Positions 759 to 1,956 of a stretch of DNA of 1,956 nucleotides are shown one piece after another. Position 1 is the first letter of the stretch, and each line of letters begins with the position of its first letter. A program made the translations under genes and the position numbers. The DNA comes from Escherichia coli (GTDB lineage: Bacteria > Pseudomonadota > Gammaproteobacteria > Enterobacterales > Enterobacteriaceae). The DNA is taken from the NCBI RefSeq assembly GCF_003334765.1, contig NZ_QOWT01000076.1, one strand, 5' to 3'. Under the pieces are notes generated by a model that did not search any database, was not told the origin of the DNA, and saw nothing but the letters and a program-made list of their open reading frames with translations.

Positions 759-1328
759 TTATTTCTCTTCACTACGAATTAGTTCATGCTGTATCTTTAT
801 TAAACATTCGTAAGACTCATTTTTGTTCGGGAGATGTGCTGTCATTCGAGCATAAGTTGGTTTCTCATCTTTAAAATATTTTACCATGATTGAATTATCA
901 AGGACTGCCAACAACTGAACTGGATCACTGCTCTTTTTTTGATAGATACCCGCTCTTATATAACTTCTAAACCGATCGCCGAGAAACGCCGTTTTTTCTG
1001 CTGTATTTATCAACTCCTGCAACGTTCCTTTGATGGCATGATTTTCATTAAGGCGTAGTGACCCGACGCGAATTAAGAGTCTCGCCCCGCTTGGTGTGAA
1101 TTTATTATTTTTACATGTACCCAGTTCTGTTTGCCAATAATACTCACCGATGTCCTCATTCTGATACCATCTCCACATGGCTTTATTATTTAAGACAGGA
1201 AACGCGGAAAAAATAGTACCCTTAGCGAAAATAGTAAAACAATCATGATCTTTAGCTTGTATTTCGCAATCAGCTATAACACCAAAACTAACAAATATCA
1301 TCAGCAAAAAGAACAAAACTCTTTTCAT
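759..1328 (-). CDS. Putative cognate immunity protein for the Rhs CT toxin; Sec-exported periplasmic protein (189 aa precursor)
   Basis: Track ORF 759..1328 (-). Its ATG (1326-1328) overlaps the toxin TGA (1325-1327) as ATGA. N-terminus [19 protein letters not shown]|DCEIQ has a basic n-region, a hydrophobic h-region and a V-I-A signal peptidase I site. An SD-like AGAGGAA lies 6 nt upstream. The gene is AT-rich (hand-sampled stretches about 28-43% GC). Position immediately 3' of a polymorphic toxin CT is the canonical immunity position. Confidence 0.75.
1272..1328 (-). other. Predicted Sec signal peptide of the immunity protein (19 aa, cleavage after VIA)
   Basis: [19 protein letters not shown] followed by DCEIQ. 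There is no lipobox: the residue before Cys is Asp, not G/A/S, so signal peptidase II processing is unlikely. Confidence 0.65.
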
Positions 1329-1956
1329 TTTCTTATTCCTCTCGATGTTCTCTGTTTCATCTTAGCTAAAATTTCACCCAAATCATCTATCCCTGCTGTT
1401 GCTGGCCCATCGGGTTTATTAATGTCTGGGAATAAATAGGGTTCTGCACAAGTATATCCTGGTGGTAATTGAGTTGTTGGCCAATTTGTCTGTGGCAGGT
1501 AATCACTTGCTGTCTTTGTATCCATCCCTGGATACTGGGAATCATCCTGTGGCGTACAAGTCAGATTTGGTTTTACCCACTTCCTGCAATACAGTGTGTA
1601 GTCGTAAGGGCTTAATGCTCTGAAGAATGTTTTGAAAACATTAGGCGCACTACTGGCCTGGTCAATAGGATATGGCAGTCTTAATTGTTTCGCTATGTCC
1701 GGCAATTTACTTGGATCGGGCGTAGGCGGTTTGTTGGGTCTCGCTCCATATCCGCCATTATTTAAGTGTCCATATTTTGATGCCAGTCCCATTGAATCTA
1801 TATACTGAACCGGATTCAGCGGATACTGATAAAAATTCCATCCCCCCTTCAGCCCAATCGGATCCTGAGTGATATACCTCCCCTGCAGCGGGTCATAATA
1901 GCGGTGGCGGTTGTAATACAGGCCGGACTCCTCATCATACTGCTGCCCCGGCAGGC
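1325..1956 (-). CDS. Rhs family (YD-repeat) protein, C-terminal fragment: end of the conserved core plus variable CT toxin domain; 5'-partial, continues beyond the window end
   Basis: The minus-strand frame of the 155-aa track ORF stays open from its Met (1790-1792) up to position 1954 with no stop. Hand translation of 1793-1954 gives [54 protein letters not shown], followed by [14 protein letters not shown]... This matches the hallmark end of the Rhs repeat-associated core ([12 protein letters not shown]...QDPIGL.GG.N.YQY..NP....D..GL). The Met at 1792 is therefore internal, not the true start. Stop TGA at 1325-1327. Confidence 0.9.
1328..1783 (-). other. Variable Rhs C-terminal toxin domain (152 aa) of unknown activity
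   Basis: Sequence after the GL junction: [152 protein letters not shown]. It sits exactly where Rhs CT toxins sit and is followed by a coupled small ORF. I see no HExxH, HxxxH or other canonical nuclease/peptidase motif, and the single His precedes all three Cys. Confidence 0.7.
1335..1341 (-). promoter_or_regulatory. Ribosome-binding site for the immunity gene
   Basis: Minus-strand AGAGGAA (plus-strand ttcctct at 1335-1341), 6 nt upstream of the ATG at 1328, located inside the 3' end of the toxin coding sequence. Confidence 0.5.
1784..1813 (-). other. Rhs core/CT junction motif (PxxxxDPxGL-type; here [10 protein letters not shown]), the predicted autoproteolytic demarcation site
   Basis: Ten codons, P(1811-1813) V Q Y I D S M G L(1784-1786), with the same spacing as the PxxxxDPxGL motif that ends Rhs cores, except that Ser replaces the Pro after Asp. 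Confidence 0.75.
1814..1956 (-). other. Conserved Rhs core terminal region (partial), relatively GC-rich
   Basis: Encodes ...[43 protein letters not shown]. Hand-counted GC for 1793-1956 is about 52% (86/164), clearly higher than the downstream CT and immunity sequence. Confidence 0.85.

Follow-up and report, generated by a model that had tools for sequence, protein, structure and literature searches.

The variable C-terminal tips (CTs) of Rhs proteins and their small downstream partner genes are known in the Enterobacteriaceae as Rhs-CT/RhsI modules, some of which are orphans (Poole et al. 2011, PMC3150448; Jackson et al. 2009, PMC2935791). An envelope-acting Rhs toxin has an existing precedent in Tse5 (RhsP1) of Pseudomonas aeruginosa (PMC9637101), which is delivered by a type VI secretion system (T6SS), can act when placed in the periplasm and is paired with Tsi5 (PMC9637101, PMC10684867). 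Periplasmic T6SS cargo effectors (the Tae/Tai amidases, Tge/Tgi muramidases, Tlde1, Tle/Tli lipases and Tox-Act1/Imm-Act1) likewise combine a small effector with a periplasmic immunity protein (PMC12994826). Here we analyse a stretch of 1,956 nucleotides of Escherichia coli DNA (NCBI RefSeq assembly GCF_003334765.1, contig NZ_QOWT01000076.1; hereafter the window), the minus strand of which encodes the end of an Rhs core, a CT of 152 amino acids and the secreted protein YbfC. An original prediction, made from these letters alone, had proposed the CT and YbfC as an undescribed, periplasm-acting toxin/immunity pair. Our favoured reading, which we hold with moderate confidence, is that they form an Rhs toxin module in which a soluble CT would act in the periplasm and be neutralized by exported YbfC.

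In layout the locus follows Rhs-CT/RhsI modules: a conserved core runs to a PxxxxD(P)xGL motif, after which come a tip that is variable and richer in A+T and, coupled to it, a small gene downstream. Some copies of the tip end a full-length Rhs; others are orphan fragments that lie behind a different rhs gene and have remnants of H-repeat/ISAs1 close by. The locus differs in that the CT belongs to no described toxin family and in the export of YbfC, the tips and partners tested to date (DNases, RNases and ADP-ribosyltransferases) being cytoplasmic. With Tse5 the CT shares its Rhs origin, a length of about 150 residues and the absence of a predicted enzymatic activity. Tse5-CT, however, is a pore former with transmembrane and amphipathic helices, and Tsi5 is an inner-membrane protein with two transmembrane segments, whereas the CT has no hydrophobic segment and YbfC is predicted to be soluble, rich in beta structure and made with a cleavable signal peptide; the two systems show no similarity in sequence. 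For the periplasmic T6SS cargo pairs as for CT/YbfC, the reasoning is that a toxin acts where its immunity protein is located. Unlike the CT, the Tae, Tge, Tlde1 and Tle effectors are usually stand-alone cargo with recognizable catalytic sets (Cys-His, Glu, SHGC and GxSxG, respectively), none of which is conserved in the CT.

The candidate toxin and its partner across relatives

Close relatives of the CT and of YbfC were found only in the Enterobacteriaceae (Escherichia, Salmonella, Citrobacter, Kluyvera, Phytobacter and Pseudocitrobacter). A CT profile returned 28 matches from 1.84 billion representative proteins, and a more diverse profile searched against 5.8 billion proteins added few matches and no new architectures, all being Rhs-linked or fragments. 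Wherever a match retained its N terminus, the CT came after the Rhs DPxGL motif. We inspected the contigs of seven distant CT relatives, and all seven carried a YbfC homologue directly downstream, either overlapping the CT gene or within ~30 nucleotides of it. The CT cores of these relatives are 38–45% identical to that of the window and their partners 20–33% identical to YbfC. Six of the partners (188–207 amino acids) align with YbfC over their full length; the seventh (locus L022) is a truncated protein of 108 amino acids that aligns over the N-terminal half and is probably frameshifted. A signal-peptide-like N terminus of basic, hydrophobic and small residues was present on every one of the seven. 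Pairwise identities between CT cores correlated with those between partners (r = 0.89, Mantel p ~0.0008), and r was 0.76 when two close enterobacterial copies were removed. The partner diverges faster than the CT, and immunity proteins usually diverge faster than toxins. That the CT and YbfC are a cognate putative toxin and exported partner is well supported by this comparative evidence. Both genes are under purifying selection, with a ratio of nonsynonymous to synonymous substitution rates (dN/dS) of 0.10–0.30 for each, and thus are real genes rather than chance open reading frames (ORFs).

We called signal peptides heuristically, from the n-, h- and c-region layout and a −3/−1 check. YbfC has an MKR n-region, an h-region with a mean Kyte–Doolittle hydropathy of 3.46 over 10 residues and a V-I-A↓D site that fits the −3/−1 rule. 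Its N terminus has neither a lipobox (Cys at +2) nor a twin-Arg motif, and no further hydrophobic segment was found in the mature protein (maximum Kyte–Doolittle average over 19 residues, KD19, of 0.76), so that the cleavable signal peptide read by the original prediction is borne out on these heuristics. A comparable N terminus is present in nine of nine members of the YbfC family examined, and another hydrophobic segment occurs only in the truncated L022 copy. Two cysteines of YbfC, C30 and C175, are invariant, and C21 and C72 go together, four lineages having both and three having neither. This pattern, read from the alignment, suggests two disulfides, and with paired cysteines an oxidizing compartment would be expected. 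YbfC is predicted to be a beta-sandwich-like, soluble, exported protein.

The CT comprises the 152 amino acids after MGL (1783 to 1328), of which 13.8% are Pro, 8.6% Thr, 7.9% Asp and 6.6% Tyr, with three cysteines (C66, C76 and C112) and one His. The Rhs junction, the length, cysteine count and Pro/Tyr/Thr/Asp richness of the CT and the coupled 189-amino-acid gene had all been described correctly by the original prediction. In most of the distant relatives the profile match begins only at about residue 34. From there on, the core contains the motifs SPYDYTxYCxxW, LTC (with the second Cys), PGxDxKT, DYxP, LPxGYxC and AGIDD, and then a C-terminal helix that is amphipathic and cationic, with R-K at the very end. 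In the family alignment S58, P59, C66, W69, D94, P107, C112, A130 and D134 are invariant and D61, Y62, C76 and G109 nearly so. The family has no conserved His, no invariant Glu (E114 varies) and no GxSxG. No hydrophobic segment was found in the CT (maximum KD19 of 0.14), which argues that it is not a membrane inserter. Residues 61–120 were modelled by AlphaFold2 (AF2) as beta strands at a predicted local distance difference test score (pLDDT) of 71–82; the CT model is of low confidence overall, so this structural check is a weak one.

Neither the CT nor YbfC had a significant match in Pfam, NCBIfam, PADLOC or PHROGs, including when every member of the YbfC alignment was run against Pfam, and profiles of both families searched against Protein Data Bank sequences gave chance matches only (E > 0.6). 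The claim that the CT has no recognizable catalytic signature therefore stands, and the homology check returned no significant match to a characterized toxin family. We considered several known effector classes and rejected each. For Tae, Tge, Tle and Tlde1, the respective catalytic sets (Cys-His; Glu; GxSxG or HxKxxxxD; SHGC) are not conserved and no profile matched. The catalytic motif of colicin M is DxYDx5HR; the CT has a Y-D, but a colicin M-like lipid II phosphatase was rejected on account of the missing first Asp, a different spacing, the lack of a His and the non-conservation of R67. A Tse5-like pore former was rejected because the CT has no transmembrane or hydrophobic helices and YbfC, predicted to be beta-rich, has no transmembrane segment. 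As judged from the alignment, the conserved set of two to three Asp and three Cys, without a His or an invariant Glu, matches none of the known effector classes.

Carriers, orphans and layout of the locus

The whole window is 100% identical to DNA of E. coli ML35 and other strains, and at least 80% of it is present in 3032 of 5426 complete E. coli genomes. CT DNA was found in 3571 of the 5426 (~66%), nearly always as a single copy, and the CT is at least 99% identical in 2954 genomes. The region sits between kdp/ybfA and ybgA/phrB and is thus the RhsC element, of which the window is the distal part; annotation of the locus reads RHS fragment, ybfC ('protein YbfC', WP_000832338.1) and ISAs1 pseudogene. 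In ML35 and a K-12-type O16:H48 strain the gene order is rhsC, ybfB, an N-terminally truncated Rhs fragment, ybfC and ISAs1 remnants. The K-12-type genome checked, PG20180058, has a CT that is 100% identical, on a truncated orphan Rhs downstream of rhsC–ybfB. In this ML35/K-12 arrangement the CT is an orphan, stored rather than deployed.

Other strains carry the same tip at the end of an intact Rhs protein of 1399 amino acids, in which Pfam recognizes DUF6531, many RHS repeats and the RHS core: O157:H7 strains 86-24, AUSMDU00002545 and TT12A, the bovine strain E2865, and KGu016, where it lies at the nikR locus. The full-length Rhs gene and ybfC are both intact in E2865 and KGu016, and the CT and ybfC of E2865 are identical to those of the window. 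Only 164 nucleotides of Rhs core lie inside the window, so that an orphan and a full-length carrier cannot be told apart from it. By annotation name, the 16 genomes with 100% window matches comprise 13 of fragment type, 2 with an 'RHS element core protein' and 1 with an 'RHS repeat domain-containing protein'. Among 39 spread carriers, 15 are annotated 'RHS element core protein', and all five of those that we checked were full length; by extrapolation from annotation names, the tip may be deployed by something like 40% of carriers, a very rough figure. Two short contigs (QFQM01000662.1 and JARKOR010000224.1, loci L004 and L005), binned as 'Flavobacterium psychrophilum' and 'Candidatus Nanosynbacter' metagenome-assembled genomes, also hold CT and ybfC at 98–100% identity to E. 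coli, and are almost certainly mis-binned E. coli DNA.

Partner genes also occur alone. Homologues of ybfC that are 71–72% identical and have no upstream CT were found in Pseudocitrobacter vendiensis (L007, 8843–10567, directly after an H-repeat/ISAs1) and at two further loci (L006 and L008). The L007 gene would be an orphan immunity-like gene left behind after loss or displacement of the toxin; orphan immunity genes typically outlast their toxin. In Citrobacter youngae (L010) an intact ybfC homologue stands beside CT fragments only. Phytobacter ursingii ATCC 27989T has an intact CT and ybfC pair (L009) and, on a second contig, a decayed copy (L011) in which the CT is frameshifted near its end and the ybfC homologue has an in-frame stop. 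A metagenome contig (L012, 1–8981) holds a distant CT and YbfC-like pair within an array of Rhs fragments and small downstream ORFs; after the array come VgrG (Gp5_C), DUF2169 and a PAAR-like gene, so that the whole is a T6SS auxiliary cluster with stacked orphan tips.

The features of the window are collected in Table 1. The demarcation motif between core and tip is a variant of PxxxxDPxGL with Ser in place of Pro, and in translation the variable tip starts directly after it; in the full-length protein of locus L025, the corresponding region just upstream of the tip matches the Pfam RHS family PF03527 (E 3.7e-14). At the junction with ybfC the start codon (1328–1326) shares bases with the CT stop codon (1327–1325), and the same 4-nucleotide overlap is annotated in ML35, E2865, KGu016 and O157. 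G+C content falls from ~0.47 at the end of the Rhs core (1700–1956) to 0.29–0.33 across ybfC and the intergenic DNA (500–900), the usual compositional break between an Rhs core and the tip and immunity cargo that it has acquired. The transposase copy is annotated in ML35 as 'ISAs1 family transposase, internal stop', and K-12-type strains have an additional ybfQ fragment between ybfC and the ISAs1 copy. Scans of the window against Rfam and for promoters and terminators gave nothing notable.

Table 1 Positions of the Rhs core end, the tip, ybfC and the transposase remnant in the window.
Feature	Position	Strand	Description
Rhs core 3' end	1784..1956	minus	From translation; frame open to the window edge; annotated RHS core or fragment in 100%-identical genomes
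DPIGL motif in Rhs core end	1850-1864	minus	
Core/tip demarcation motif	1784-1813	minus	PxxxxDxxGL type, ending MGL
ORF of the tip	1325..1792	minus	155 amino acids counted from the ATG of MGL
CT residues 1-33	1685..1783	minus	Pro/Gly-rich, poorly conserved linker; pLDDT <50 in both AF2 runs
CT residues 34-152	1328..1684	minus	Conserved core of the putative toxin, from family alignments; stop TGA 1325-1327
Coupling junction	1325..1341	minus	GAGGA Shine-Dalgarno 1337-1341, 8 nucleotides upstream; ATGA overlap
ybfC ORF	759..1328	minus	189 amino acids
ybfC signal peptide	1272..1328	minus	Residues 1-19; n/h/c-region heuristics
Mature YbfC	759..1271	minus	170 amino acids; stop 759-761; predicted mostly beta and soluble; proposed immunity protein
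ISAs1/H-repeat transposase start	3-533	minus	177 N-terminal codons; in-frame TAA at codon 18 (480-482)

Site of action and competing explanations

On the reading that we favour, a full-length Rhs protein would enclose the CT in its YD-repeat shell, its autoprotease would cut the CT free after MGL and the T6SS would fire it into the periplasm of a neighbouring cell. There the core of ~120 residues, whose three conserved cysteines may have to be oxidized in the periplasm, would act as a soluble toxin on an envelope target, for which the cell wall, its precursors or a periplasmic protein are candidates, and would stay out of the cytoplasm. T6SS effectors that depend on DsbA are known. In the carrier's own periplasm, Sec-exported YbfC, held by one or two disulfides, would bind and block the CT. 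Strains with the orphan arrangement could not deliver the CT, and for them the module would serve as retained immunity against deploying kin and as a reservoir for recombination. The periplasmic toxin/immunity assignment of the original prediction gains from the pairing in all seven distant relatives, the correlated divergence, the export signal and the paired YbfC cysteines, all of them features of sequence; it is unproven, and the O157:H7 alleles described below are awkward for it.

Several observations weigh against this reading. In all three complete O157:H7 genomes examined (L002, 9456–10026; L023; L024) the full-length toxin gene is intact and ybfC is frameshifted. The lesion is one T too many in a run of T residues (T9) inside the codons of the signal peptide, at about 1300–1315 of the window, giving MKRVLFFFADDIC*, and the genomes were assembled independently. 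Exported YbfC is therefore not indispensable to a carrier, at least with the T6SS silent. Rhs tips usually act in the cytoplasm (PMC12994826). The E. coli loci, between ybfA/kdp and ybgA or beside nikR, have no adjacent vgrG or T6SS genes, the PAAR match in the N terminus of the full-length Rhs is weak (E 0.19), and a T6SS neighbourhood was seen for one distant relative (L012) only. The conserved cysteines of the CT are odd in number and no catalytic set can be identified in it, so a wall-enzyme claim has no direct support. A fused CT-(G4S)6-YbfC model gave no interface information, and the confidence of the CT in AF2 did not rise with YbfC present. Lastly, our search of the literature that can be searched returned no functional study of ybfC or ybfO and no experiment on the pair, so toxicity, neutralization and site of action are inferred.

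The O157:H7 allele could be a lineage-specific loss of immunity or a slippage-prone tract. In these strains the T6SS or RhsC may be silent, translation may begin again at Met10, or the reading frame may be recovered by slippage; failing that, the exported form of YbfC would be dispensable.

An unlikely alternative is that the CT perturbs membranes, depolarizing the inner membrane or opening pores in it from the periplasmic side by means of its cationic amphipathic C-terminal helix, as Tse5 does, with YbfC sequestering it beforehand. Amphipathicity in the CT is highest over its last 18 residues (hydrophobic moment, muH, of 0.63), which are net basic, the D-D...R-K pattern there is conserved across the family, and no catalytic residue set is recognizable. 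Tse5-CT is moreover of similar size (149 amino acids), likewise lacks a predicted enzymatic activity and is toxic if sent to the periplasm (PMC9637101). Tse5-CT, however, has transmembrane regions and the CT nowhere approaches one in hydropathy; Tsi5 is an integral membrane protein and YbfC is predicted to be soluble and beta-rich; and the amphipathic moment falls, in our reading, under the Eisenberg surface-seeking line at that hydrophobicity. A peripheral action at the membrane through this segment may nonetheless occur.

Less likely still is a CT that crosses the inner membrane like most tips of Rhs and contact-dependent inhibition (CDI) proteins and acts in the cytoplasm, with YbfC an unrelated exported accessory or passenger. 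Such a toxin would sit well with the tolerance of O157:H7 for a frameshifted ybfC beside an intact toxin gene and with the lack of binding evidence from the fused model. The window, however, has no other candidate immunity ORF between the CT and the next mobile element, and this alternative does not account for a coupled YbfC homologue behind every distant CT relative inspected, for the co-divergence of the two families or for the persistence of YbfC homologues as orphans after CT loss, which is typical of immunity genes. Very unlikely is that, in this genome type, displacement of an Rhs tip has left the CT as a dead fragment and ybfC as a leftover without present function: the Rhs piece is annotated as a pseudogene without its N terminus in ML35 and K-12-type strains, decayed ISAs1 copies flank the module and decayed copies occur elsewhere, as in P. 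ursingii, but both genes are intact with low dN/dS, the CT is nearly invariant in 2954 genomes, E2865 bears the identical pair on a full-length Rhs, and being an orphan agrees with the role in storage and immunity that is known for orphan Rhs modules (PMC3150448).

A possible new toxin and immunity family in E. coli

Rhs polymorphic toxins with coupled immunity genes, kept as orphan modules, are a well-known kind of system, and the genes of this locus have long been annotated. A K-12 promoter survey treats ybfOC as a single operon (PMC3946193). In a transcriptome study of Shiga toxin-producing E. coli, transcripts of ybfC ('putative secreted protein') and rhsC were detected, co-varied and were higher in strains associated with haemolytic uraemic syndrome (PMC6033998). 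An in silico study of enterohaemorrhagic E. coli (EHEC) lists the same tip as RhsC/RhsCI (PMC7216683). Positions 1723–1742 of the window are exactly equal to primer rhsCR (TAGGCGGTTTGTTGGGTCTC), used there to type 'rhsC' in EHEC EDL933, which identifies the 'RhsC' tip of that study with the CT. We disregarded its VipE-like and tetratricopeptide repeat (TPR) guesses, which rest on TM 0.57 and E 0.21.

The novelty claimed for the pair thus stands in part: neither family has a characterized sequence relative, yet ybfC is an old annotation and the tip, present in about two-thirds of E. coli genomes, has been listed before. What appears new is an undescribed, narrowly distributed putative toxin domain, found only on Rhs proteins and paired with an equally undescribed, predicted beta-sandwich partner that would be exported. 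The CT/YbfC pairing points to a soluble mode of action in the periplasm, something that would be unusual for Rhs. Going further, we put forward tentatively that the CT may found a new class of small, Cys-bearing periplasmic toxins with a novel fold and chemistry, for example a stoichiometric inhibitor of, or an unusual enzyme acting on, a step of envelope assembly, and that YbfC may represent a new beta-sandwich immunity family with structural relatives in Betaproteobacteria, Planctomycetes and Lentisphaerae. If this were true, a K-12 y-gene carried by around two-thirds of E. coli would gain a function, and a new envelope target would come to light.

Both ybfC and the tip of the ybfO/rhsC locus still belong to the E. 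coli K-12 genes without a known function, and in EHEC the tip is borne on a full-length Rhs. The system offers a clean case in which to ask why strains that do not attack keep an orphan immunity gene and why O157:H7 lost it. If our inference holds, this Rhs effector would act in the periplasm in soluble form and not by way of the membrane, which is uncommon among Rhs tips, and the locus would define one new toxin family and one new immunity family and, possibly, expose a new vulnerable step in envelope biology.

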